A program made the translations under genes and the position numbers. The notes under the pieces are model-generated. The model saw only the letters and a list, made by a program, of their open reading frames with translations. It did not search any database and was not told where the DNA came from. From sequence record NC_047749.1: a stretch of 64,000 nt of DNA, one strand, 5' to 3'. This document shows, one piece after another, positions 16,175 through 51,632 of this stretch. Position 1 is the first letter of the stretch. Every line of letters starts with the position of its first letter. The DNA is from Escherichia phage DT571/2.

Positions 16175-16215
16175 GTAAAATAAAAGCCTGATCCGCTAAG
16201 ATCAGGCTTAATTTA

Positions 16216-24893: not shown

Positions 24894-24968
24894 TGGTGCG
24901 GGATACGAGAGTCGAACTCGTGTCTACTGGTTGGAAGCCAGTTATTCTAGCCGCTGAACTAATCACGC
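24894..24968 (-). tRNA. tRNA-Gly (anticodon UCC)
   Basis: hand fold: encoded CCA, perfect T-arm ACGAG/TTCGACT/CTCGT, anticodon arm ACTGG-CTTCCAA-CCAGT. Confidence 0.7.
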
Positions 24969-24979
24969 ATTAATTTGGT

Positions 24980-25057
24980 TGGCAGGGGATATTGGATTTG
25001 AACCAATGATCTCGACTTCAAATGCCGTAGCTTTAGGCCAAGCTAAGCTAATCCCCA
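24980..25057 (-). tRNA. tRNA-Gln (anticodon UUG), U1-U72 mismatch
   Basis: hand fold: CCA, G73, T-arm ATTGG/TTCAAAT/CCAAT, anticodon loop ATTTGAA. Confidence 0.55.
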
Positions 25058-25063
25058 ATTGTT

Positions 25064-25139
25064 TGGCAGAAGGTAGTGGATTTGAACCACTGATCAGGGT
25101 TTCAGAGACCCCAGCCTTAACCGACTTGGCTCAGGTTCT
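25064..25139 (-). tRNA. tRNA-Gln (anticodon CUG), imperfect acceptor stem
   Basis: hand fold: CCA, G73, D-arm resembling E. coli tRNA-Gln, anticodon loop CTCTGAA; 5' boundary uncertain. Confidence 0.5.
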
Positions 25140-25303
25140 TCAAGGCGCTTACCTTCATGATCTACTCGAATGAGTCCACATCCTTCGCAAACCACAACTG
25201 CACCATAACCTTCTTTGACCTCAGCTTCTGTAATCAGACCAGAAAGATCACCAGTATCTCTGCCCCACATATCAATGGAGCATTGTTTGCAGAAATCAGC
25301 CAT
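25094..25303 (-). CDS. small zinc-ribbon-like protein; 3' end overlaps tRNA-Gln
   Basis: 69 aa; CxxC...CxxC (CKQC, CEGC). Confidence 0.4.
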   Translation of the reverse strand: MADFCKQCSIDMWGRDTGDLSGLITEAEVKEGYGAVVVCEGCGLIRVDHEGKRLEEPEPSRLRLGSLKP

Positions 25304-25305
25304 AA

Positions 25306-25533
25306 TTAATCCTTATTACAAGTGGTAGAGAGGATGGTACGATCGGAGATCCAACCGCCAGTGTAAGCACCATTGACTTTATATTCAGTCAAAGTACCGT
25401 GACCACGAATAGCGAAAACTGTTAGGGTTTTCGTGCCCCCATAACCATCTTTAACAGTTACGGTACAATCTAATGATGTGCCGATAGTGCAGCCAGCTAA
25501 AGTCAGAGCAGCAATCAATACTAAGTATTTCAT
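25306..25533 (-). CDS. lipoprotein
   Basis: 75 aa; signal peptide with lipobox LAGC. Confidence 0.55.
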   Translation of the reverse strand: MKYLVLIAALTLAGCTIGTSLDCTVTVKDGYGGTKTLTVFAIRGHGTLTEYKVNGAYTGGWISDRTILSTTCNKD

Positions 25534-25556
25534 GTTGTTATCCTTGTTAAGTTAAT

Positions 25557-25631
25557 TGGTGCATCCTCAGGGAATCGAACCCCAATCGTAAAGTTCGTGG
25601 CTTTACATTCTTTCCATTGAAATAAGGACGC
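25557..25631 (-). tRNA. tRNA-Arg (anticodon ACG)
   Basis: hand fold: CCA, perfect anticodon stem TAAAG/CTTTA, loop CCACGAA (C at position 33). Confidence 0.65.
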
Positions 25632-25637
25632 AATATT

Positions 25638-25714
25638 TGGGGTGGCTAGTGGAATTCGAATCCACATAGGCCTGATTCACAATCAGGATCATTAACCAAT
25701 TATGATATAGCCAC
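25638..25714 (-). tRNA. tRNA-His (anticodon GUG)
   Basis: hand fold: perfect acceptor GTGGCTA/TAGCCAC, T-arm GTGGA/TTCGAAT/TCCAC, anticodon loop TTGTGAA, CCA encoded. Confidence 0.8.
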
Positions 25715-25938
25715 AATTGAAAACTCGCAGGGTTAGCGAAACCATCCTCAATTAGCATGTTCTAGAATACTAATCAAGTTATCTCCTATTGCACGCAGCT
25801 CAAGACGAGTACGAATTTTCAATTGTGGCGGCTCTCAGAAACTCTTCTATTCTAGCCTCAGAAGCTTACCCCCGAACGCATGTCGGGAAAGTCTTTCCAA
25901 GAGCATCAAATAGCACCGTTACACTTTGAGCCATTATT

Positions 25939-26033
25939 TGGAGGTAGGTAAGGGGATCGAACCCTTACACCGTATCACTACGATCAACCGATTTCAAGTC
26001 GGAGTCCAGCGCCAGCCGTTGGATTGACCTACC
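25939..26033 (-). tRNA. tRNA-Ser (anticodon UGA), class II
   Basis: hand fold: perfect acceptor and T-arm, anticodon loop CTTGAAA, long variable arm. Confidence 0.7.
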
Positions 26034-26045
26034 ATATAAATTGTT

Positions 26046-26136
26046 TGGCGGAAGAGGAGAGATTTGAACTCTCAAGCCGTTTTACCAGTCAGCCACTTTC
26101 CAAGCGGTTTTCGTCGCCAATTCGATTTGCTCTTCC
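26046..26136 (-). tRNA. tRNA-Ser (anticodon GGA), class II
   Basis: hand fold: perfect acceptor GGAAGAG/CTCTTCC, T-arm GAGAG/TTCAAAT/CTCTC, loop TTGGAAA. Confidence 0.65.
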
Positions 26137-26172
26137 AATAATAAGATGATGCCTCTATCACGCCAGGCAGTT

Positions 26173-26245
26173 ACGCCTCGCTGGGATTCGAACCCATTAA
26201 AACAGCTCAACCGAGATAGTAGGTTTAATTTACTCTGACCATCAA
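26173..26245 (-). tRNA. tRNA-like element (T-arm only, no acceptor pairing found)
   Basis: canonical T-arm TGGG/TTCGAAT/CCCA at 26181..26197 but no complementary 5' acceptor located. Confidence 0.3.
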
Positions 26246-26248
26246 ATT

Positions 26249-26325
26249 TGGTGCGTGACAAGGGATTCGAACCCTCAAAACCCGACTTCTAGGGACGGTA
26301 TGTATGCCAATTCCATCAATCACGC
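26249..26325 (-). tRNA. tRNA, anticodon not confidently assigned (loop CCTAGAA would give UAG)
   Basis: hand fold: CCA, good acceptor and T-arm, anticodon stem with one U-U mismatch, D-arm unclear. Confidence 0.55.
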
Positions 26326-26330
26326 GTATT

Positions 26331-26405
26331 TGGTGGAGAAAGAGGGAGTTGAACCCTCGTCTTCTGCGTGCAAAGCAGATGTTCTACCATTAAACTATAT
26401 CCCCA
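26331..26405 (-). tRNA. tRNA-Ala (anticodon UGC)
   Basis: hand fold: CCA, T-arm GAGGG/TTCAACT/CCCTC, perfect anticodon arm TCTGC-TTTGCAC-GCAGA. Confidence 0.65.
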
Positions 26406-26642
26406 AATTCTTTAGTTTACTAAGGCTATTAGCTCGGCGTAACTACAGCACCTTCACTTCGAGCGGAAGGAACCGCGTCATCTCGCAAACCCGATACACT
26501 ATTCAGTTGCCGCTGAATCTAGTGGACTAATCTAGAACCTCCCCCAAATTGTAGGGATCGTGCTTTTTGGCAGCCAGTCCTAGGTCGAGCTAATACCTTA
26601 GTGAACTATGATGAGGATTTCTCCCCATCAATTTATATAAAT

Positions 26643-26671
26643 ATTATAACAAGAAATTAAGCATCAAGCAA
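26643..26671 (-). promoter_or_regulatory. T5-early-type promoter driving the tRNA cluster
   Basis: RC of TTGCTT-17-TATAAT; no ORF downstream, leads into tRNAs. Confidence 0.55.
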
Positions 26672-26772
26672 ATGAGTTTTTCCTTGAAATTGGTAGCGGG
26701 TTCCAGTACTGCCCTGGACTTACTTAGCTTATGAGACTAAGAAGAACTCTATGCCTTCCACCCGCAATTGTT

Positions 26773-26836
26773 TGGTCAGTGCGGCAGGACTCGAACCTGC
26801 GACCTGAAGCATCCAAGGCTCCCACGCTACGCACTG
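26773..26836 (-). tRNA. atypical 64-nt tRNA-like element (no room for a D-arm)
   Basis: CCA, perfect 7-bp acceptor CAGTGCG/CGCACTG and perfect T-arm GCAGG/TTCGAGT/CCTGC, only 29 nt between them. Confidence 0.4.
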
Positions 26837-26844
26837 AAAGTTTA

Positions 26845-27192
26845 TTAGTTTAACCGTAAAGTATTATCTACTTCACCATTAATTGTTCGGCATTCCTCTG
26901 GGATTGTCGGAGTGGCCTTGTATTCCCACCACTCAGCACCGTCATATTCCCCACGTTCTAGCCAAGTTCCATCGGCAAACCATACATTACCATAAAGTAA
27001 TTGTCCACCGTATCCAGAATCATATTCAAAGTCTAGGTTATTAAGAAAATCCTCAATATCTTCTTCTGTATAACCTAAAGGTAATACCCAGACTTTTTTA
27101 TCCCCATAATACCCGAATTCTATTTTAATACACTTAACTTTAGAATTGGTATTTTTTAAGGCGAGTAATAGCTCTTCTTTAGCATTACGCAT
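26845..27192 (-). CDS. hypothetical protein
   Basis: 115-aa ORF. Confidence 0.55.
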   Translation of the reverse strand: MRNAKEELLLALKNTNSKVKCIKIEFGYYGDKKVWVLPLGYTEEDIEDFLNNLDFEYDSGYGGQLLYGNVWFADGTWLERGEYDGAEWWEYKATPTIPEECRTINGEVDNTLRLN

Positions 27193-27217
27193 AGTATATT
27201 CTCATACTGAGTTAATT

Positions 27218-27291
27218 TGGCGCGACCGATGGGATTTGAACCCACATTCCCCGTGACAGGGGAGTACCATTACCAAGCCAGCCCCTGTCGC
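27218..27291 (-). tRNA. tRNA-Asp (anticodon GUC)
   Basis: hand fold: CCA, T-arm, anticodon loop CTGTCAC. Confidence 0.7.
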
Positions 27292-27300
27292 ATAATTCAT

Positions 27301-27486
27301 TTACTCATATTTGAGTTTTTCAATAGCTGCATTAAGTTCTTTTAGAGCTTCACGACGTTCTACCTGACCTTGAAGTTCTTCAAGAAGTTCCGCTTTCAGA
27401 GTCTCAATAATTTTACCACGAACCTTGATATTATTAATCAGATTATCACGATCAGCTTCTAGTCGAGCAATTGCATGAGTTGTCAT
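27301..27486 (-). CDS. small coiled-coil protein
   Basis: 61-aa ORF. Confidence 0.45.
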   Translation of the reverse strand: MTTHAIARLEADRDNLINNIKVRGKIIETLKAELLEELQGQVERREALKELNAAIEKLKYE

Positions 27487-27513
27487 ATCTATTTCCTCAG
27501 TTATTAATGAAAA

Positions 27514-27586
27514 TGGTATCTGTGGCTGAATTCGATGTCAGCAATGATAGCTGGTTGGCTACCGGTTTACTTAACTCTACACAGAA
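27514..27586 (-). tRNA. tRNA-like element with non-canonical loops (possible pseudo-tRNA)
   Basis: CCA plus 6/7 acceptor pairing, but T-loop and anticodon loop are 8 nt. Confidence 0.3.
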
Positions 27587-27588
27587 TT

Positions 27589-27666
27589 TGGCGGGCCGTG
27601 TAGGATTCGAACCACCAACCCCGAAGGGCACGGATTTACAGACCGCTGCAATAGCCATTCTGCCAA
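27589..27666 (-). tRNA. tRNA-like element with Tyr-like anticodon loop CTGTAAA (degenerate)
   Basis: CCA, weak T-stem, variable-arm hairpin CCC-TTCG-GGG, no acceptor pairing found. Confidence 0.35.
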
Positions 27667-27750
27667 CGATGTATATTTAAAAGTATTCAAATACTTGTTT
27701 AAACACTTTTAAATATGTTTCCAACTTAGATAACTATTATATCTAGGTTT

Positions 27751-27792
27751 AAGGCACTGAGCAAGTCAGATTTTGAAGAATTTGCTCAGTGC
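27751..27792. other. stable hairpin (11-bp stem GCACTGAGCAA / TTGCTCAGTGC)
   Basis: read directly; lies in leader between promoter at 27868 and tRNAs. Confidence 0.6.
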
Positions 27793-27867
27793 TATATTAG
27801 TTAGTCGAACTTAGGAGTAACAATTAAAGAGAATGGGAGTTCGAAAACTTCATCAATTTATATAACT

Positions 27868-27897
27868 ATTATATCAGAAATTTAAAGCAAAAGGCAA
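27868..27897 (-). promoter_or_regulatory. T5-early-type promoter (tRNA leader)
   Basis: RC of TTGCCT-18-TATAAT with conserved leader. Confidence 0.45.
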
Positions 27898-27927
27898 GTA
27901 CTTTTTTAAAAATTCTGTTTGGAGGAG

Positions 27928-28134
27928 CTAAACTCCAGATTCTTCAGCCAAGTCTAGACTAATAAGAGTTATAGCCATAATTGCCGCACCGTGTTCTTTT
28001 TCTCCGGTGTTTTTAGCAGAGTCTATAATACCCTTAATCTGTTCGTAATAACTTTTTACTTCTTGTTCAATGCCGGCCTCGGCTATCATGCCTTTAGTCA
28101 TGAGTCGTTGCATGGTAATTTCACGGTTAGCCAT
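27928..28134 (-). CDS. hypothetical protein
   Basis: 68-aa ORF. Confidence 0.45.
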   Translation of the reverse strand: MANREITMQRLMTKGMIAEAGIEQEVKSYYEQIKGIIDSAKNTGEKEHGAAIMAITLISLDLAEESGV

Positions 28135-28309
28135 GATGTTTCTCCAGTTTCATCTTTAATAGTTTACAAATGAAGTCAATATCTTCATCCGTGCCTAGAT
28201 CTCTATCTTCAAGAGTTGCCTTGAAGTTTTTAGTCAACTCCATAAGGATGACTTCCCTAGAACGACGTGTTGGCGGAGGTGGATGTCTATACATCTTATT
28301 TCCTTAATT

Positions 28310-28384
28310 TGGTGGGTCGGAGGAGAATCTAACTCCTACTCGTTAGCTTATGAGGCCACCGCTTTAACTTTAAGCTACCGACCC
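28310..28384 (-). tRNA. tRNA-Met (anticodon CAU)
   Basis: hand fold: perfect acceptor GGGTCGG/CCGACCC, perfect T-arm, D-stem GCTT/AAGC, loop CTCATAA. Confidence 0.75.
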
Positions 28385-28390
28385 TATGTT

Positions 28391-28479
28391 TGGCGGAAGA
28401 AGCGGGAATCGAACCCACAAGGCTATATTTCAAACCGACAGATTAGCAATCTGCTGCAATACCGTTATGCTATTCTTCC
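28391..28479 (-). tRNA. tRNA-Ser (anticodon GCU), class II
   Basis: hand fold: perfect acceptor GGAAGAA/TTCTTCC, anticodon arm GCAGA-TTGCTAA-TCTGT, long variable arm. Confidence 0.7.
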
Positions 28480-28500
28480 GAATTTATAAGATATATTATA

Positions 28501-29037
28501 TTAGAAATTTAGCTTCATAGCAAGAAAATTTTTCAAGTTTTCGGTAGACATCTCATCCACATCTACAGGAGAAACAAACCCATCTAATTGTCTAGCAAAT
28601 TTTTCACCGGCAGGATCATTATCCCCAACAGCTACCAATTTAAAAGGTAGTAATTTCAATTGCTTTAACAACGCTTTTCCGGGGGAAGAACCCAACATTG
28701 CTAGGGCAGGATAACCAGCATTATGTAATGCTACAGCCTTAAATACAGATTCAGCAATCAATACTACTTTTTCATCCCCATTGAGAGTTTCTAGCCCCCA
28801 TACACACTGTGTGGTAGAATAAGTAAAATATCTAGCTTCAGAGGGGCACTTACCATGACCTTTTGGAGCAGAAGGATTATAAATCTGATAGCCTCTCAGC
28901 ATCCCAGAGAAGTCGTACAATGGGACTGTTAGCCATCCCTCCGGGCTTAACCAGCAATGATATTTATCTGTATCAAACCCTCTGGATAAGAGATGTTCTG
29001 TTAGTTCATCAACAGTCATATTAGATTCCTCTCTCAA
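28501..29037 (-). CDS. small Toprim-like domain protein
   Basis: 178 aa; LIAESVFKA and VAVGDNDPAGEKFA resemble Toprim E and DxD motifs. Confidence 0.5.
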   Translation of the reverse strand: MREESNMTVDELTEHLLSRGFDTDKYHCWLSPEGWLTVPLYDFSGMLRGYQIYNPSAPKGHGKCPSEARYFTYSTTQCVWGLETLNGDEKVVLIAESVFKAVALHNAGYPALAMLGSSPGKALLKQLKLLPFKLVAVGDNDPAGEKFARQLDGFVSPVDVDEMSTENLKNFLAMKLNF

Positions 29038-29048
29038 ATTATAAATAT

Positions 29049-29077
29049 ATTATACAGAGAATTTAGCATTCAAGCAA
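29049..29077 (-). promoter_or_regulatory. T5-early-type promoter
   Basis: RC of TTGCTT-17-TATAAT. Confidence 0.55.
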
Positions 29078-29163
29078 TTGAATTTTTAAACTTTTTAGTG
29101 GAAAATCTCAAGACATTTAATGGCAGCACGTTGTTGCTGTAATAAGAGTATATGGTTCTAAAG

Positions 29164-29206
29164 AACCAAACAATAAAGCCCTGCGCTCTCCAGGGAACGC
29201 AGGGCT
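29164..29206 (-). terminator. rho-independent terminator
   Basis: 9-bp GC-rich stem AGCCCTGCG/CGCAGGGCT followed on the minus strand by a U-rich tract. Confidence 0.65.
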
Positions 29207-29230
29207 TACTTCAGAGATTACATGCGGGTG

Positions 29231-30178
29231 TTATTTGTTACGCATGTCCATGATCATCTGGCCATCGTAACCAGTTCCCACAACTGTTTGCGGTACACCA
29301 CCTTGATACTTCTGAGCACGAATCATTTCAACTTCTAGTTGTTTCCAACGAATCATCTCAGGAGTAATGGTACGTTGCAGAGCGGCGTTAGCCTCAGCTT
29401 CTTTCTTAGCTGCGTACAGTTTAGCATCTGCATCACGTTCGTTTGCAATAGCTTGGTTGTTACGAGCTTCACGATCTGCTTCTGCTTGTTTAACCTTCTG
29501 CTGTGCTTCTTGTTCAACACGAGCCAACTCAGCTTTCGCAGCATTAACTTGTTCTTCACGAACTTTGGTATTCTGTACCTGTTCCATGATTACAGGCGGC
29601 AAAGTAATATCCTGAAGGAACACTTGCTTAACTGTGTAACCATAAGGGCGTGCATACTCTTCAACTTCCTGTTGAATTGCAGTTTGTAATTGAGCCTGAA
29701 TTTTAGCATCAAACAAATCTTGTGCTTTAGGAACAGACTTGCCGAACTCACGAATAGTAGACAGTAATTTTTCAGTTACATATTTGTCTAACGCTTGATC
29801 CTGAGTACCTGCATTAATACGGTTAATCGGTGCCTTAGAACCATCAAATTGTAACATAACAGTCAGGTCAACAGTGGATTTAAACTTATCCTGACTAGGA
29901 ACCTGAAGTTTATCTAATTTTACAGCAATATCTTTTGTACTAAAAGTATCGAAAGATGCAAAGGGGTTTACAAGATGGAAGCCAGGTAATACTGGGTTAG
30001 GATCTACTTTACCAAGAAATGTTTGGGTTTTAACCGTACCATCGGAAACAATAGTATATGAATTAAAAGCTAGGATTAAACCTGCTAAACCAACTACAGC
30101 ACCAATACCCCAACGTTTAATAGTGCGCATTACTTTTTGCTCAGAAGTCAGTTCTTTCATATTTTTAGTATTAAACAT
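29231..30178 (-). CDS. SPFH/band-7 (HflC/prohibitin-like) membrane protein
   Basis: 315 aa; N-terminal TM helix, SPFH-like core, Ala/Glu/Lys-rich coiled-coil tail. Confidence 0.7.
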   Translation of the reverse strand: MFNTKNMKELTSEQKVMRTIKRWGIGAVVGLAGLILAFNSYTIVSDGTVKTQTFLGKVDPNPVLPGFHLVNPFASFDTFSTKDIAVKLDKLQVPSQDKFKSTVDLTVMLQFDGSKAPINRINAGTQDQALDKYVTEKLLSTIREFGKSVPKAQDLFDAKIQAQLQTAIQQEVEEYARPYGYTVKQVFLQDITLPPVIMEQVQNTKVREEQVNAAKAELARVEQEAQQKVKQAEADREARNNQAIANERDADAKLYAAKKEAEANAALQRTITPEMIRWKQLEVEMIRAQKYQGGVPQTVVGTGYDGQMIMDMRNK

Positions 30179-30212
30179 GTATTTCCTTTGTTTTAGTTAC
30201 AGTTAATAAAAT

Positions 30213-30287
30213 TGGCCGAGGTGACAGGATTCGAACCTGCATAAAGGAATTTAGAAGACTCCTGCCTCTCCCTTAGACTACACCCCG
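30213..30287 (-). tRNA. tRNA-Arg (anticodon UCU)
   Basis: hand fold: CCA, acceptor with one G-U, T-arm, anticodon arm GGAGT-CTTCTAA-ATTCC. Confidence 0.65.
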
Positions 30288-30788
30288 TTTAAGTATTTTT
30301 AAGAACTCTCGTAAAAACTCTTAAAAATACAGACGATACCGGGAGAGTCATAAGTCTCACTCATTAAGTATTTCAAGACAAAATACAGTAACGTCTATTA
30401 TTTTCCAGTTTAAGTCAAGGTGACTTAGTGGTTATGCCCTGCGGTATACTGAGGACTCGGTTAGGCTAGGGTCATGACTCCCCGCTTTTTGCTGCTACTC
30501 AACAGGAATTATCGCGAATTACCTGTGCTATTGTGCACCATTAGTGGCATCTCTCATGCCAGCATTTCCCACTTTGTGGATAGTTTGAAAAACTACTCCG
30601 ATATGGAGGGAGAACTTCACTATCCTAGAATACCTTCTAAAGTTCTTCTTTAGCCTGGACATAGTTAAATCGTAATAAAACTATTCAGCAGACTGGTTGG
30701 TTAGCCTGGAACCAACTACCGCGTGGTTTAGGCAGTGCGCAACTAACCTCGGAAGCTTTTACGTTAAAAGCACCAGTTATCCAGTTCT

Positions 30789-30860
30789 TACCGATCGTAG
30801 GATTCGAACCTACATCTTCCACCAGTTACGGCTTGATAATACCGTTTATACTAGATCGGC
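30789..30860 (-). tRNA. tRNA, CCA not encoded, anticodon undetermined
   Basis: perfect T-arm GTAGG/TTCGAAT/CCTAC and 7-bp acceptor with one G-U. Confidence 0.5.
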
Positions 30861-30935
30861 AGTGTTACTACATAAGTGATTTCCACACCCCACTATCAAT
30901 AAATTAGGGAAGAATTACTCTCTAATTTATGAATA

Positions 30936-46629: not shown

Positions 46630-46802
46630 TTAAATCTGTGTATACACATCCCGATGATATATTTGTATGGGCGGATGGTAGTTGGTGTTATCGATGTGAG
46701 TTATGGGAAATGGACTATAAATCCGATGACTATGGTGTCATATATGTTGATACGGTTGAGTATGATATGTTCTTAGAAAGGAACAAAAATGGAAATAAGT
46801 AA
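46620..46802 (+). CDS. hypothetical protein
   Basis: 60-aa ORF. Confidence 0.45.
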   Translation: MSIVKSVYTHPDDIFVWADGSWCYRCELWEMDYKSDDYGVIYVDTVEYDMFLERNKNGNK

Positions 46803-47295
46803 TACTCCAATTATTTTTCTAGACATTGATGGGGTGCTCAACTCGAGCATCTCCCATCACCATGCACCTGATGATGAAAAGATTTTCTTTGGAAGTGACT
46901 GGGTTTTTAAACCGCTTCTCAAGGCTTTTCAGGACTTTATTCGTCCTTCTCCAATAATGATTGTTGGGGTATCTTCATGGTTCTCTGTCAGGAATGAGGT
47001 GGAGAACGTTCAGATTATGACCAGATTAGATCTTATCGATCGTTTTCTTGGTATAACGGATTTTACTGGTGGTGGGCTATCTAGGGGTAATTCTGTTCTT
47101 CGCTTCGTCGAAAAGCATAAGCTCAAACATTGGTGTGTGCTGGATGATGCTGGTGCTATGATGTATCAGTATCCAACAGTTATAGTCAACGGTAGAACTG
47201 GAATAAATCTTCAAGACTTAAGAGCTGTTAGCTATATGTTAGAATTTAGTCCAGATCTTGAAATGTGTAAAGCCCTACAACAATTTAAGGTGTAA
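46789..47295 (+). CDS. HAD-like hydrolase
   Basis: 168 aa; motif I FLDIDGVLN, later VLDDAG. Confidence 0.6.
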   Translation: MEISNTPIIFLDIDGVLNSSISHHHAPDDEKIFFGSDWVFKPLLKAFQDFIRPSPIMIVGVSSWFSVRNEVENVQIMTRLDLIDRFLGITDFTGGGLSRGNSVLRFVEKHKLKHWCVLDDAGAMMYQYPTVIVNGRTGINLQDLRAVSYMLEFSPDLEMCKALQQFKV

Positions 47296-47297
47296 AT

Positions 47298-47726
47298 ATG
47301 TTCAATAATGTATTCTCTAAAGAAGCTAACCCAATATTGGTTAATTTTTGGCGTACTCTTCCAGCCAACCTGTACAATGAGGCTATTAATGCTCTGAAAA
47401 TATGGTGTGAGAATAATGAAATCTCCTTTGCTTTTAAGGATGAGATTGAAGAAGCTCCCTGTATTGGTTTAATTGTGCAGGTAGAGGATGGCTTTGAAGA
47501 GATTATCGGATGGAAAGAGCTGGATGAAATGGGATTGGTTTTTGCATTAAACTATAAGCTATTTATGCCCAATAAACACCGTATTGTTGTTAATTATAAA
47601 ACCAGTGAATCTCCGGGCTTTCAAGTTAATGAACATTACGGTTGGTCTTACTCACCGGAAGAAGTAAATGATGGTATCCAAAGACTTCGTCGTTTTGGTT
47701 ATCAAATTCCGGGTTTAACCGCCTAA
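47298..47726 (+). CDS. hypothetical protein, tandem paralog A
   Basis: 142 aa; shares blocks with the next ORF. Confidence 0.55.
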   Translation: MFNNVFSKEANPILVNFWRTLPANLYNEAINALKIWCENNEISFAFKDEIEEAPCIGLIVQVEDGFEEIIGWKELDEMGLVFALNYKLFMPNKHRIVVNYKTSESPGFQVNEHYGWSYSPEEVNDGIQRLRRFGYQIPGLTA

Positions 47727-47735
47727 GGGGACACA

Positions 47736-48128
47736 ATGGAACAAGTATATTGGCGTCAGATTGATCCTAGTTTGGTGAAGAGTGCGGAGAAGCTGCTACA
47801 ACGTTGGTTGGGGGTAAGACAAGCCTCCTTCACTTTTCCGGAGCAGCAAATAGACGATCCCTGTGTTGGTGTTTTCCTATCAGGCTACGCTAGGGAAGTG
47901 GAATTGGATTGGAATGAATTGTCTGCTATGGGTTTAATTGTTGCACTAAATTTCTCTTTGTTCCATCCACGTGGGTTGGCAATATGTCGTGTGCCTGATG
48001 ACGGTTGTTCGCCCCATCTTTTACAGGTGGAAGATGATATTTGGGAGTACCCTCCAGATATTCTCAAAGAAGCTAAAGAACAATTAAATCGTGTTGGGAT
48101 TTATGTTCCAGGCCTGAATGATGAATGA
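47736..48128 (+). CDS. hypothetical protein, tandem paralog B
   Basis: 130 aa; similar to upstream ORF. Confidence 0.55.
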   Translation: MEQVYWRQIDPSLVKSAEKLLQRWLGVRQASFTFPEQQIDDPCVGVFLSGYAREVELDWNELSAMGLIVALNFSLFHPRGLAICRVPDDGCSPHLLQVEDDIWEYPPDILKEAKEQLNRVGIYVPGLNDE

Positions 48129-48219
48129 TTTTTATTAGCTGAACTCTGATTACCGAGTCATTTTGGCTCGGTTTTCTCTATGCTCAAAGACACTGGTAGC
48201 AGCCCCTGGAAAAATTTAC

Positions 48220-48248
48220 TTGCTTGATGCTCAAAATCTTGATATAAT
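48220..48248 (+). promoter_or_regulatory. T5-early-type promoter with no ORF for about 600 nt
   Basis: TTGCTT-17-TATAAT plus leader AATTGAGAGAC but no start codon. Confidence 0.6.
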
Positions 48249-48842
48249 ATTTATATTGAATTGAGAGACATTAGTAAAAATTGATTTTGCTAATTTTTCT
48301 TAGTGAAGCTGACAAGGGATTTACGGCGAGAGGAATCGATGACCCGTAAATAGCTGCATAAGGTACGTTGCTAGAGCTTTACGAAAAAGTTTTTTCTTGT
48401 TTACAATCCGCGATACGGAACAGTTAGGCTGCCCCATTAAGGGTTGTTTTAACTATTACTAGTGTTTATATTGCATTAGTTAACCTTCAATTAAGTGATC
48501 TGTGTACCCTGAATTCGGAAAGGTAAATCCAAACCGTGCATATTTAGCTCGTTATATAGGCAGAGCTTTATATGGGGGTGCGAACGAAAAGAGCAGCGAA
48601 TGGCGGCACGTACAGTAGTCACCTACCAATAGGATAGTGAGGACAAGTAGAATCGGCTTAGCGGCCAATGACCTAGGTTCTATTCTGTATAAGAGCGAAG
48701 AGAGCACAGCACTGAGATATGATAACTTATTCATATTGTTTGATGATAATTGATGTTTACGTAAATAGTAGTAATAGTTGTTCTATTCTTTCTGAATAGT
48801 CCTAAAGAAAAGATTTCGATTAACCAACACAGGAGTATTATT

Positions 48843-51632
48843 GTGTTTTCTATCCTCCAAGGTCACGCCGGGTTTTCTCGTGATTTAGCAACAGGTATTT
48901 GGCGAGAAATCAAAGCGGGAGATTATACCTTTGCCAAGCGATTCTCGAAAGAGCATCCAGAAGGTAAACCAGCTTCTATGCCCTTCAAATTTGATGTAAT
49001 AGAAGAGCACGACCCACAAAGCCTTGCAGAAATGTTACCACTTATGAGACGTTTAACGTCTGACCCTCATATCGTTGCGGTACGAGGTCGATGTCTTGCA
49101 CCTAAAAATAATGTGCGACGTAAGAAAGATAACTTTAATGTATCTAATCCTAGTAATATTATTGCTATGGACGTGGATGGTATCCTAGATACCGGTGGGT
49201 ACGACAAATTTAATCTTGTTGGTATGGCCCGCCACATTATTAAGATGTTGAATAGTATTAGTGAGGATATGTTTCCTCTTGATGCAGGCTTTATAGCTCA
49301 TGCATCATCTTCGGCTGGGCTAAAACCAGGTATCCGAATGCACTTAATACTAGAATCTAACGTCAAGGTAACTCAGGGTCAGCTAAAGTTCTTATTTACA
49401 TCTATCAATGATAGTAGTAAGCAAAAATTTGGTTTTGATATTGCCGACCTAGCTTATTACTCATCTGTCCAGCTCCACTATTTTGCCGACCCCTTATTTA
49501 GCGATGGTATTGTTGATCCGTTTAAAGCGGAGAGTAAGCCACGTCTGGTGTATGTTAAAGGCTCAAAAGTAAACTTACCTAATAATCTAGTTGACTATGA
49601 AACAACTAGAGGAGAGTTTAAAGAGGAATTCTACTCTTTACTCGATCAAATTAAAGGCAAAAAGATTGCTTCTGATAAAGTAGAAGAAACCATCAGCGAG
49701 TTAGAAGAGGCTGATGATGGAGTGTACTTGCGTATTATCCCCAAACTATACCATAGAGCATTAGAGGATGGTGTTGATTTTGAATGGCTAGAACGTGAGA
49801 TTAAACCAGCTTTATCTGAATATATTGCAACTAAAGATAACAGTCGTAATATTCAAGATTACTTTAATAACGGTCGCAAGCAGGCTCTCAAAGCGTTTGT
49901 TAATAATTCTAAACGTGAGATTCCACCAAATCTGAAAGGTGTTCCACTTAAGAAATTAGAAGTGGATTCTCCACCAGAAGTTCCGTACCTGAAGATTAAC
50001 ATTGTGCCCCCAAAAGGTCATATAACATTTGTTAAGGCAAGTCTTGGTACGGGTAAAACTACGGCAGTAACTAAATGGCTGGACGCAGGTGTTCTTCCGG
50101 GCAACTTTTTAGCAGTTACAAATACTAGAGCACTGGTATCTTCAAATGCCAAGAAATTTAGTGCAGGACAATACGATAAGTCTGTAGATATGCTCAACTT
50201 TAAACGTGGGGCTATTGATCGTATGTCCACAACTATTCACTCTTTGCATAAGTTCAAAAGTTTTATTGGGCAAATAGACACCATTTTTATTGATGAATGT
50301 GACGCTGTAATGAATGACCTATTATTCGCCCCTGTTGTTAAACAACGTCGCGAGTGTATTCAAGTTCTACGTGACATCCTCATGACAGCTAAGACTGTAA
50401 TCTTATCCGATGGTGATATTAGTGCGGAAACAATTGAAGCATATGGTTCTTTGATTGAGTTCGATAAACCAGTTGCATTTTACAATCACCACCGTAAAAT
50501 GTTATCAAAGGCTCATGCTTATGAATTCCCTGATGAATCCAGTATTTGGGTTGCACTTCAGACTTCTCTAGAGATGGGTGAGAAATCTATTCTAGTATCT
50601 GATTGTGGTCCTGATGAGCTGAATGAGAAGGGTATGGCACTACGTCGTAATACTGGTGCATTAGTTAAAGAAATCCATTCAAACTCCACTTCAGATGTGG
50701 ATATTCGACGTATTCTGGATTATACAACTAATGAGCTAATTGATCAACAAATTGATTGCTTATTATGTAGTCCATCCGTAACGAGTGGAGTTGACTTTAA
50801 CTATTTTGATAACGTATTTGTTATTACTAGAACCAGTAATCAGGCGCCAAACATGCGTTTTCAAGCAATCAGGCGCGACCGTGGTGCTCAGAATATCTAT
50901 TATTTTATTGATAAATCCACTAGTGGATTCTCTGCGGGTTCTGAACAATATAATATCGATGAAGGTTGGCTGGAGTTAGCACAGCAATTATATGCACGTC
51001 GCAGGGAGCTGGAGTCTAGGAACTATACTAGTACTTTACGTTATTACTTGCTTGATCAGGGTGCAACTATTGATATTTTCAGTGAAAGCTGGGGAACTAT
51101 TGAAGGTGCTGGTAAAGAATACACAGAAGAGCGAATCAAAGCTATTCTACATTCAACTCCTGATTATTGTGCTCCACGTCATGCGGATGCGTATGAGGCT
51201 AAACTACTTATTGTTCGCTATTATCATCTTGAGTCTATTAAAGATGTAACAGTTGAGCATGTTGAACAATATATCAAAGATAAGCCGAATGATCGAGCTG
51301 CATTCTTCCATAAGATGCACGAGATGTTCTGGGAAGATATTAAGAAGTGTTCAAATGTGACCATTAAACCATTCATAGAAGCTCTGAAAGGTAAGAAGAA
51401 AGATTTCTTCCTTAAAACAGGTCAGAGTGCTAACCCAAAATATGCTAGAATGTATCTTGGTATGATGGGTATTGGTAAAGATATGAACACGGAGAATATC
51501 GTAGACTGGTATAGAACCTACTGCAAAATCGAATGTATGCCAATCCCTCTCAAATTCATGACTGAAGAAGAGAAGGCTATGGCAGAAGAAGCAATGTCAG
51601 AACTAGGTGCTAGAAATGACAGTGAAGAATAA
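48843..51632 (+). CDS. large P-loop NTPase, helicase or origin-binding-like (GTG start)
   Basis: 929 aa; Walker A GTGKTT, Walker B IDECD; AGGAG SD before GTG. Confidence 0.7.
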   Translation: MFSILQGHAGFSRDLATGIWREIKAGDYTFAKRFSKEHPEGKPASMPFKFDVIEEHDPQSLAEMLPLMRRLTSDPHIVAVRGRCLAPKNNVRRKKDNFNVSNPSNIIAMDVDGILDTGGYDKFNLVGMARHIIKMLNSISEDMFPLDAGFIAHASSSAGLKPGIRMHLILESNVKVTQGQLKFLFTSINDSSKQKFGFDIADLAYYSSVQLHYFADPLFSDGIVDPFKAESKPRLVYVKGSKVNLPNNLVDYETTRGEFKEEFYSLLDQIKGKKIASDKVEETISELEEADDGVYLRIIPKLYHRALEDGVDFEWLEREIKPALSEYIATKDNSRNIQDYFNNGRKQALKAFVNNSKREIPPNLKGVPLKKLEVDSPPEVPYLKINIVPPKGHITFVKASLGTGKTTAVTKWLDAGVLPGNFLAVTNTRALVSSNAKKFSAGQYDKSVDMLNFKRGAIDRMSTTIHSLHKFKSFIGQIDTIFIDECDAVMNDLLFAPVVKQRRECIQVLRDILMTAKTVILSDGDISAETIEAYGSLIEFDKPVAFYNHHRKMLSKAHAYEFPDESSIWVALQTSLEMGEKSILVSDCGPDELNEKGMALRRNTGALVKEIHSNSTSDVDIRRILDYTTNELIDQQIDCLLCSPSVTSGVDFNYFDNVFVITRTSNQAPNMRFQAIRRDRGAQNIYYFIDKSTSGFSAGSEQYNIDEGWLELAQQLYARRRELESRNYTSTLRYYLLDQGATIDIFSESWGTIEGAGKEYTEERIKAILHSTPDYCAPRHADAYEAKLLIVRYYHLESIKDVTVEHVEQYIKDKPNDRAAFFHKMHEMFWEDIKKCSNVTIKPFIEALKGKKKDFFLKTGQSANPKYARMYLGMMGIGKDMNTENIVDWYRTYCKIECMPIPLKFMTEEEKAMAEEAMSELGARNDSEE

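Follow-up and report, generated by a model that had tools for sequence, protein, structure and literature searches.

A conserved predicted RNA structure upstream of the D2 helicase gene in Escherichia phage DT571/2 and other T5-like phages

Bacterial and phage RNAs of more than ~400 nt with dense covariation-supported structure are rare, and the characterised ones are ribozymes, ribonucleoprotein scaffolds or unusual assemblies. The present analysis concerns a gene-free interval of Escherichia phage DT571/2 (NC_047749.1), a T5-like phage (Tequintavirus), of which one stretch of 64,000 nt was analysed (hereafter, the window). The interval, 48129-48842, is the gap between a gene encoding a DUF7415 protein and the GTG-initiated gene of the D2 helicase, and the sequence preceding D2 within it is referred to below as the D2 leader. 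T5 is among the classic model phages, and relatives of it are isolated widely for use in phage therapy.

Several described systems resemble the D2 leader in part. In the lambda N leader and at the T7 early mRNA sites, as in the D2 leader, a long imperfect double-stranded stem is located upstream of a gene in an early phage transcript, where cleavage would remodel the region of the ribosome-binding site (RBS). Long imperfect stems of this sort are cleaved by RNase III in the early transcripts of lambda and T7. However, the lambda and T7 sites are single hairpins of ~20-30 bp, whereas the stem of the D2 leader closes a branched 300-nt core with conserved loops, and its cleavage is hypothetical. 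The 5' leader of Escherichia coli rpoS, as described in PMC2831331, is similar in its size of several hundred nucleotides and in the predicted intramolecular pairing of its RBS, the long duplex of the D2 leader being a potential RNase III target. Unlike rpoS, the D2 leader has far more covariation-supported structure, an invariant apical loop, no known small RNA partner and a weakly supported occlusion of the Shine-Dalgarno sequence (SD). The GOLLD and ROOL RNAs (PMC5737381) share with the leader RNA a length of hundreds of nucleotides, complex multi-stem folds and carriage by phages; however, they are found near tRNA genes and not as 5' untranslated regions (5' UTRs), whereas the leader RNA accompanies a single gene within a single phage family and has no similarity to any Rfam model. 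The ARRPOF, PAGEV and GEBRO elements (PMC5737381) are likewise structured, measure 220-350 nt, lie beside replication genes and have uncertain roles as RNA or single-stranded DNA; the only match of ARRPOF was a 12-bit chance match over the promoter, and the hosts and architecture of these elements differ from those of the leader RNA.

The segment 48255-48842 very probably encodes a conserved structured RNA of the + strand. A preliminary description of the interval, made from the letters of the sequence, had proposed a structured noncoding RNA (ncRNA) or a long regulatory 5' UTR; the structure was borne out by covariation, by strand-specific G-U pairing and by the lack of an open reading frame (ORF), and fits either form. 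A set of 13 lineages was compared using a plain MAFFT alignment and RNAalifold, and comprised three types of core sequence (A, B and C, described below) together with Sugarland, IME260, My1 and the My1-like uncultivated viral genome (UViG) L067. Despite the poor alignment of the core, RNAalifold recovered the long-range helices. Over 38 pairs, 92.3% of cells were paired, compared with 81.4 +/- 0.9% in column shuffles and 37-55% when the partners were slid by 1-3 columns. Changes on both sides were found in half of these pairs (19/38; shuffle mean 10, with 0/500 shuffles reaching 19), and the covariation score was 0.401 versus 0.192 in shuffles. The helix P1, which closes the domain, differed in sequence in each of the lineages listed, namely, UAACUAUUACUA/UAGUAAUAGUUG in type A, UAACUGUUAC/GUAACAGUUG in type B, UAACUAUUAUCAUU/AAUGAUAAUAGUUG in type C, GGUUAUUAUAUAACUU/AGGUUAUAUAAUAACC in My1 and GAUUAUUAUACAG/CUGUAUAAUAAUU in L067.

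Single core types were also analysed on their own. For type A alone (21 distinct leaders), RNAalifold revealed 139 pairs, with 99.7% of cells paired versus 34-51% after sliding; double changes were found in 12 pairs (0-1 after sliding), and all 17 pairs variable on one side stayed paired. For type B alone (18 leaders), 156 pairs were found (99.8% paired, seven double changes), and the layout was that of type A: a 5' hairpin, a 5' domain, a long closing stem, a Y-shaped sub-domain, a hairpin with a UAGC loop, a 3' hairpin and a terminal hairpin. In the 13-lineage set, G-U cells numbered 93 and A-C cells 11. The minimum free energy (MFE) of the + strand was 7-35 kcal/mol lower than that of the - strand in 12 of the 13 sequences, with MFE z-scores of -1.9 to -2.4 and -0.6 to -0.8, respectively. 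It should be noted that the structures were predicted on the + strand and that the RNAalifold energies were alike for both strands on the crude 13-sequence alignment; the structural argument is carried by covariation and not by thermodynamics. The covariance model built from type A (R1) was narrow (0.89 effective sequences) and gave noise with the filters off, and MAFFT failed on the 3' arms of the UAGC hairpin; for these reasons, helices shared across types were analysed using scripts and RNAalifold on the crude alignment.

No known family accounted for the leader. The covariance-model search suggested at the outset was run against Rfam 15 (4227 families, among them riboswitches, T-box, RNase P, tmRNA, 6S, group I/II introns, GOLLD, ROOL, OLE, HEARO, raiA and ARRPOF) and gave no match to the leader, the gathering-level matches in the window being tRNAs located elsewhere. 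At E <= 10, the region 48050-48950 gave scores of 12-17 bits against thresholds of 36-127, and no relevant match arose in the homologous regions of 14 relatives. A likeness to the CR-V region of RNase P (ACAGAAC..CCGGCU), noticed by eye, was dropped because no Rfam family, RNase P included, scored at this threshold. A full-text literature search returned nothing on a structured RNA or a long leader upstream of D2, and the published anti-retron Rad is unrelated to the leader RNA. Within the limits of the literature searched, the leader RNA is an undescribed RNA family, new within kinds already known (structured leaders and large phage ncRNAs) and with no demonstrably new mechanism.

The leader combines fixed flanks with an exchangeable core. 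Identity to the window was 95-100% in the 5' hairpin, 92-99% in the 5' block and 98-100% in the 3' block, compared with 76-96% in the last 300 nt of the upstream gene and 76-97% in the first 300 nt of D2; the flanking blocks are under stronger constraint than the neighbouring genes. Between phages with 76-92% identity in the flanking coding DNA, the 5' hairpin, the 5' block and the 3' block were 92-100% identical. Between them, the ~300-nt core was represented by at least three mutually unalignable sequence types that kept the same helices: type A in the window, T5, BF23, bastian and GSW6; type B in SP3, chee24, DaisyDussoix, Th1 and 3sent1; and type C in phiR2-01. In a lenient global alignment, the types had 64-70% identity, which is the level seen between genera and no higher than that of unrelated sequence, and the locally alignable part was only 5-34%. 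The D2 N-termini of phages carrying different core types were ~90% identical to that of the window, and type A was found in both Tequintavirus and Epseptimavirus. Consequently, either lineages have traded the core among themselves, or it has changed extremely rapidly while its flanks stayed fixed. An exchangeable core on fixed flanks is an unusual pattern of RNA evolution that wants explanation.

The only long invariant island within the variable core was GGCUUAGCGGCC (48655-48666), the apex of the UAGC hairpin. The inner stem of this hairpin has 4 bp (G-C, G-C, C-G and U-G) capped by UAGC; beneath it, on the 3' side, is an asymmetric internal loop, and the outer stem measures 7-9 bp. This outer stem took at least nine different sequences in 13 variants of the hairpin (for example, UAGAAUC/GGUUCUA, UAGAAAU/AUUUCUA, CAGAAUC/GGUUCUG, CAAAUCU/GGAUUUG and AUUGAGG/CCUCAAU, and further GUGCGGGU/ACCCUGCAC, CACCU/AGGUG and CCACG/CGUGG), and the first two inner pairs covaried as well. 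The UAGC hairpin was the only part that the type A covariance model found in other types; all pairs were intact in type B, and type C and Sugarland showed one or two non-standard pairs. The UAGC apex and the invariant single-stranded blocks look like candidate sites of protein contact or tertiary interaction. The same CU[UAGC]GG apex was observed in the intrinsic terminator of an nrdC-like thioredoxin gene in the window (16186-16211, - strand; AAGCCUGAUCU[UAGC]GGAUCAGGCUU, then a U run). The loop of this terminator was constant in four relatives (UUAGCU, compared with UUAGCG in the window), and its stem covaried (CCUGAUC, CCAGAUC and CCUAGUC). This terminator may be a second site for the same putative factor, or the likeness may be a coincidence.

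The coordinates of the leader elements and of the adjoining signals are given in Table 1.

Table 1. Features of the D2 leader and of the adjoining sequence in the window, as predicted from sequence and comparison.
Feature	Position	Strand	Details and basis
Intrinsic terminator of the upstream operon	48152-48176 (48152-48172 before the T run)	+	ACCGAG...CTCGGT, then a T run; terminator scan; annotated in T5 (NC_005859) and BF23; kept in relatives
T5-type early promoter	48210-48254	+	A-tract; -35 TTGCTT 48220-48225; 17-nt spacer; -10 TATAAT 48243-48248; homologous promoter annotated in two T5 records
Initial transcribed sequence with AU-rich hairpin	48255-48302	+	UUAGUAAAA/UUUUGCUAA at ~48271-48293, then UUUUUCUU; 95-100% identical in seven relatives
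Optional ~97-nt module with its own stem-loop	48303-48393	+	Direct repeat TTTTTCTT on both sides; hairpin in the fold
Conserved 5' domain	48394-48447	+	Pyrimidine strand UUCUUGU 48394-48400; helix 48403-09/48441-47 around the invariant hairpin CAGU-UAG-GCUG 48421-48431
Large closed domain: long imperfect stem and multi-branched core	48450-48780	+	RNAalifold, pair counts
Stem P1	48450-61/48769-80	+	Compensatory changes across genera
Stem P2	48463-69/48761-67	+	RNAalifold
Stem P3	48473-82/48747-56	+	RNAalifold
Stem P4	48487-90/48740-43	+	RNAalifold
Stem P5	48494-505/48704-13	+	Compensatory changes across genera
UAGC hairpin	48646-48684	+	Apex GGCU[UAGC]GGCC 48655-48666; CUUAGCGG 48657-48664; asymmetric 3' internal loop; covarying outer stem
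3' branch hairpin	48716-48737	+	5/5 pairs changed on both sides; loop RGUUGCCA in most non-A lineages
Terminal hairpin and invariant single-stranded tail	48783-48812	+	CUAUUC-UUUCU-GAAUAG 48783-48799, then UCCUAAAGAAAAG; 98-100% identity in all Markadamsvirinae compared
SD and start of D2	48829-48845	+	ACAGGAG; SD AGGAG 48831-48835; 7-nt spacer; GTG 48843
D2 helicase gene, 929 aa, "replication origin binding protein"	48843-51632	+	ORF; Pfam Herpes_ori_bp; GenBank annotation

The leader begins with the 5' hairpin segment, which an optional 97-nt insert may follow; the conserved 5' block, the ~300-nt core and the conserved 3' block come next, and a short variable stretch leads to the SD. The 5' AU-rich hairpin, the sequence of which is unique within the window, was present in the MFE fold and showed a U-G to U-A change in phiR2-01. 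The 97-nt module was found in the window, Kenya-K44, bastian, phiR2-01 and SP3 and was absent from T5, BF23 and most others, and its presence did not track genus boundaries. It folds alone and shows one compensatory change (G-C to A-U, window versus bastian), and thus looks like an optional RNA domain. The possibility that it is a multi-copy mobile element or a dispersed repeat was rejected, since it occurred in 49 records as one copy each, always at the D2-leader locus. The 8-bp direct repeat TTTTTCTT bounding it was observed at 48295-48302 and 48391-48398, which is consistent with gain or loss of the module by slippage or recombination at this repeat. Within the 5' domain, GAACAGUnnGGCUGC was also kept in Sugarland, My1 and L067, and the spacing between the 5' motif and the start codon was kept within 403-429 nt across genera. 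Stems P1-P5 form a predicted coaxial imperfect stem of ~45 bp. The terminal hairpin is not a terminator, since it is not followed by a U run and no terminator was called there.

As regards function, the favoured reading is that the region consists of the promoter and the 588-nt 5' leader of the D2 helicase mRNA and is probably cis-acting, the case for and against being near balance; confidence in any particular function of the leader RNA is low. The terminator scan revealed no terminator between the leader RNA and the D2 SD, and therefore the D2 mRNA must carry the leader RNA. The leader RNA would set the amount of D2 in cis. A phage or host factor could bind the invariant loop and the conserved blocks and, alternatively or additionally, a double-strand-specific nuclease (e.g., RNase III) could cut the long stem; either binding or cleavage would alter the stability of the mRNA or access to the ribosome-binding site. 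Cleavage of the stem would free the ~300-nt core and remodel the 5' end of the D2 mRNA. A double-stranded stem of at least ~20 bp, as expected of an RNase III-processed leader, is present in the predicted P1-P5 stem, and the literature search returned nothing on RNase III cleavage for T5. The pyrimidine strand 48394-48400 also has two potential partners, the SD and the A-rich tail, which may give a two-state arrangement: UUUUUCUUGU (48391-48400) was predicted to pair with ACAGGAG, including the SD, in type A and with AAGAAAA of the invariant tail in type B. In type A, RNAalifold gave a 7-bp helix between UUCUUGU (48394-48400) and ACAGGAG (48829-48835), with a G-C to G-U change in seven sequences, and one covarying pair of the SD/anti-SD helix was found across other genera. 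That the leader acts in cis in the manner described is somewhat doubtful.

Several observations weigh against this reading. Type B is predicted to close differently (UUUUCUU with AAGAAAA), and within type A the SD/anti-SD helix is invariant and so shows no covariation. In partition-function calculations that included the coding start, the pairing probability of the SD was 0.4-0.5, mostly with local partners, so that the SD/anti-SD helix was not dominant; sequestration of the SD was not a robust outcome of this ensemble calculation. The MFE z-scores given above are only moderate. Furthermore, ~140 bp is far more structure than most known cis-regulators use, and a simple operator model would not lead one to expect a core that is replaced like a cassette.

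These two last points bear on the possibility that the folded domain is an ncRNA with its own function (for example, a scaffold, decoy, anti-defence RNA or ribozyme) that shares the D2 promoter and is released by cleavage of the closing stem. Since the size of the fold and its exchangeable core suit a simple operator less than an RNA with its own function, this explanation was given substantial weight and is considered possible, though unlikely. The size and complexity of the domain (139-156 pairs, multi-branched) are nearer to those of large phage ncRNAs than to those of operators; the domain is a discrete unit closed by P1; its core has been swapped or diversified among phages with 90% identical D2 while the structure and the invariant loops were kept; the same loop on the nrdC terminator hairpin hints at a factor acting at several sites; and in Aeromonas relatives, the hairpin motif occurs twice in a gene-free stretch of 1.3 kb or more. 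However, the leader RNA was always found directly upstream of D2 and at no other locus, it has no terminator of its own, and it matches no known large-RNA family. Somewhat further along the same line, it may be suggested, tentatively, that the leader RNA is the first member of a novel class of large, structured RNAs in phages that has one address across Demerecviridae, an exchangeable core and an invariant UAGC-tipped hairpin, and that does more than control translation, being either processed and trans-acting or an RNA part of replication initiation together with D2. Such RNAs would measure ~450-590 nt in the present case and might exceed 1 kb in the Aeromonas relatives, which are known in this respect by the hairpin motif and not by homology of the whole RNA.

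A role in replication was also considered. In ColE1 RNA II, the T7 primary origin and T4 oriF/oriG, as in the D2 leader, a promoter and a folded RNA of ~500 nt, the structure of which is kept as its sequence diverges, lie beside replication functions, and the D2 transcript could by analogy be a pre-primer or R-loop former at an origin beside the initiator helicase gene, its structure being needed to form the hybrid. This is improbable, although a strong promoter does drive a structured RNA of ~500 nt beside the gene of a UL9-like helicase that is the proposed T5 initiator, the 3' end of the leader contains the conserved polypurine stretch AAAGAAAAG, divergent cores on one structure recall the incompatibility-type variation of ColE1-like primers, and the locus occupies 58.9-59.5 kb of the 121.75 kb of T5 (~48.5% of the genome). 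The origin offered in the preliminary description found no support at the locus: iterons or inverted-repeat binding sites beyond the RNA helices were absent, with only short two-copy repeats present; there was no AT-rich unwinding element, the GC content (0.37-0.39) being like that of the surrounding genome; and no inflection appeared in the cumulative skew. Unlike ColE1 RNA II, the leader RNA has no RNA I-like antisense promoter, save one weak 9/12 consensus match (48866-48837), has no origin signature in its DNA and runs into a translated gene, and its abundant G-U pairs point to an RNA fold and not to a DNA site. As for T5 itself, published work on its origins does not single out this locus; multiple internal origins seen by electron microscopy are reported, and the strand bias of recombitrons suggests dominant replication from one genome end. 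A hidden protein-coding gene, whether small, frameshifted or interrupted by an intron, is hardly credible. Some GenBank records annotate ORFs of 33-43 aa, and the window contains a 60-aa ORF (48552-48734, - strand); however, 48255-48842 (~588 nt) has 8-19 stops in each of the six frames, and the initial view that it holds no credible ORF agrees with the comparison of 13 lineages, in which the longest ORFs (36-77 aa) varied in strand, position and length and none was conserved. Moreover, the three core types are unalignable and yet keep their base pairing, substitutions track pairing and not codons, and no Rfam family, intron families included, matched; a frameshifted or intron-containing ORF was sought and not found. 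Nor is it at all likely that the interval is a non-functional spacer or recombination debris between two transcription units: the region is indeed mosaic (the optional 97-nt module, alternative cores and adjoining homing-endonuclease insertions), but conservation in parts of it exceeds that of the adjacent genes, pairing was kept through dozens of compensatory changes, and the RNA was retained across at least five genera or subfamilies.

The location of the leader RNA directly before the helicase proposed to start T5 replication makes it a concrete and easily mutated handle on the regulation of D2 and possibly on initiation. D2 is a bipolar superfamily 2 (SF2) helicase related to herpesvirus UL9 and a proposed replication initiator (PMC3632103), and in GenBank, T5 D2 is labelled a "putative DEAD/DEAH box helicase" or "replication origin binding" protein. 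The T5 equivalents of the flanking genes are T5p105/T5.107 upstream and D2 (T5p106/T5.108) downstream. The GTG-initiated 929-aa gene of the preliminary description was confirmed (GTG at 48843 with AGGAG 7 nt ahead; Herpes_ori_bp), as was its full-consensus early promoter at 48220 (TTGCTT-17-TATAAT), the homologue of which is annotated in T5 records. The interval had also been called GC-richer, which did not hold, its GC content being 0.37-0.39 versus 0.38-0.45 in the surroundings. Downstream of the promoter -10 is ATTGAGAGA, and transcription presumably starts at ~48255. In 15 relatives, the -35, the -10 and the first ~40 transcribed bases were invariant, whereas the spacer of the promoter was variable. 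A generic scan for TTGACA overlooks this promoter because TTGCTT matches it at only 3/6 positions. The D2 promoter and the first ~15 transcribed bases were near-identical to promoters that lie within tRNA regions in T5-like phages of Proteus, Providencia and Klebsiella (~1501-1575 in the Proteus and Providencia phages L078 and L079), and the D2 promoter is a shared early-promoter cassette. Promoter-only BLAST matches in Proteus and Providencia phages were rejected as leader homologues, being really other promoters in tRNA regions.

Upstream, the DUF7415 gene adjoining the interval (47736-48128, stop at 48128) is one of two neighbouring paralogous genes (142 and 130 aa; 47298-48128) with two DUF7415 repeats each, and these are preceded by a gene for a protein with a HAD_SAK_2 ("Swiss Army Knife RNA repair") domain (46789-47295). 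In 3sent1 (L013 316-768), Kenya-K34 (L012) and SHSML-45 (L015 116-568), an HNH homing-endonuclease gene was inserted at or beside the terminator-promoter interval. This insertion carried a second copy of the promoter and of the 5' leader hairpin, and the leader motif of SHSML-45 was present in two copies.

A megablast search with 48100-48900 yielded 522 phage records, all T5-like (Tequintavirus and Epseptimavirus, with lower coverage in phages of Klebsiella and other hosts). The closest match was Salmonella phage Kenya-K44 (97%); T5 and BF23 also had 97% identity, with an indel of ~100 nt. The gap upstream of D2 was present in 522-538 phage records and is not a chance feature, and among 538 records no T5-like phage lacked the whole interval and had a short D2 leader. 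The RNA was found at the same place upstream of a D2 homologue in Markadamsvirinae, Sugarlandvirus, Myunavirus, Priunavirus and Novosibvirus, and the CU[UAGC]GG hairpin recurred in Klebsiella, Pectobacterium, Proteus, Providencia and Aeromonas T5-like phages. The UAGC apex was located upstream of the D2 homologue in Providencia phages (L124 and L125) and Proteus-type phages (L122 and L123), with D2 54-62% identical. In two Aeromonas T5-like phages, with D2 26-28% identical, it was found twice upstream of the D2 homologue, and the stems differed between the phages. A pattern scan of viral sequences with the 5' motif gave mostly chance matches, plus My1, IME260, Sugarland and L067, and a similar scan of metagenomes gave only further copies of type B and of the Sugarland type.

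Gene-free gaps were also observed before D2 homologues of more distant phages. In Aeromonas phage vB_AdhS_TS3 (L049 1-1308) and in L137 (200-1600), the gene-free region was at least 1.3 kb long, with two U[UAGC]GG hairpins and an MFE z-score of ~-4.1 on both strands; it could be a much larger version of the leader RNA. A search for the UAGC motif was negative in Vibrio phages and in Serratia phage Kamaji, despite gene-free gaps of 430-1100 nt before the D2 homologue, and z-scores there were near zero. These gaps included one of 1.1 kb with 49-50% GC in Vibrio phage JSF10 (L048 271-1371) and one of 0.7 kb in Vibrio phage Brizo (L047 705-1416) containing two copies of UGAUCUCUG(U/A)GGGAGU. In two uncultivated AT-rich relatives (L129 1270-1600 and L130 40-385), with D2 45% identical, a gap of ~320 nt with 24% GC had no predicted structure and contained the tandem 14-mer repeat AGAATTTTTGAAAG; this gap looks like a different solution, more similar to an origin or a promoter.

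In T5-like genome records, the leader interval is either empty or occupied by spurious small ORFs. No RNA was annotated at the leader in any GenBank record inspected, and some records carried small ORFs or a D2 start shifted downstream. The annotation of relatives (vB_SenS-3, Sugarland, PMBT36, chee24 and Th1) was inconsistent, with ORFs of 33-43 aa placed inside the leader, and some of these records set the D2 start 135-325 nt downstream of the conserved SD/GTG. Elsewhere in the window, the tRNA cluster at 24894-30861 (- strand) contained a 61-nt tRNA (26776-26836) that was called by Rfam and not by ARAGORN, and a tRNA-Ser with the unusual anticodon ACU was called by ARAGORN at 30788-30861.

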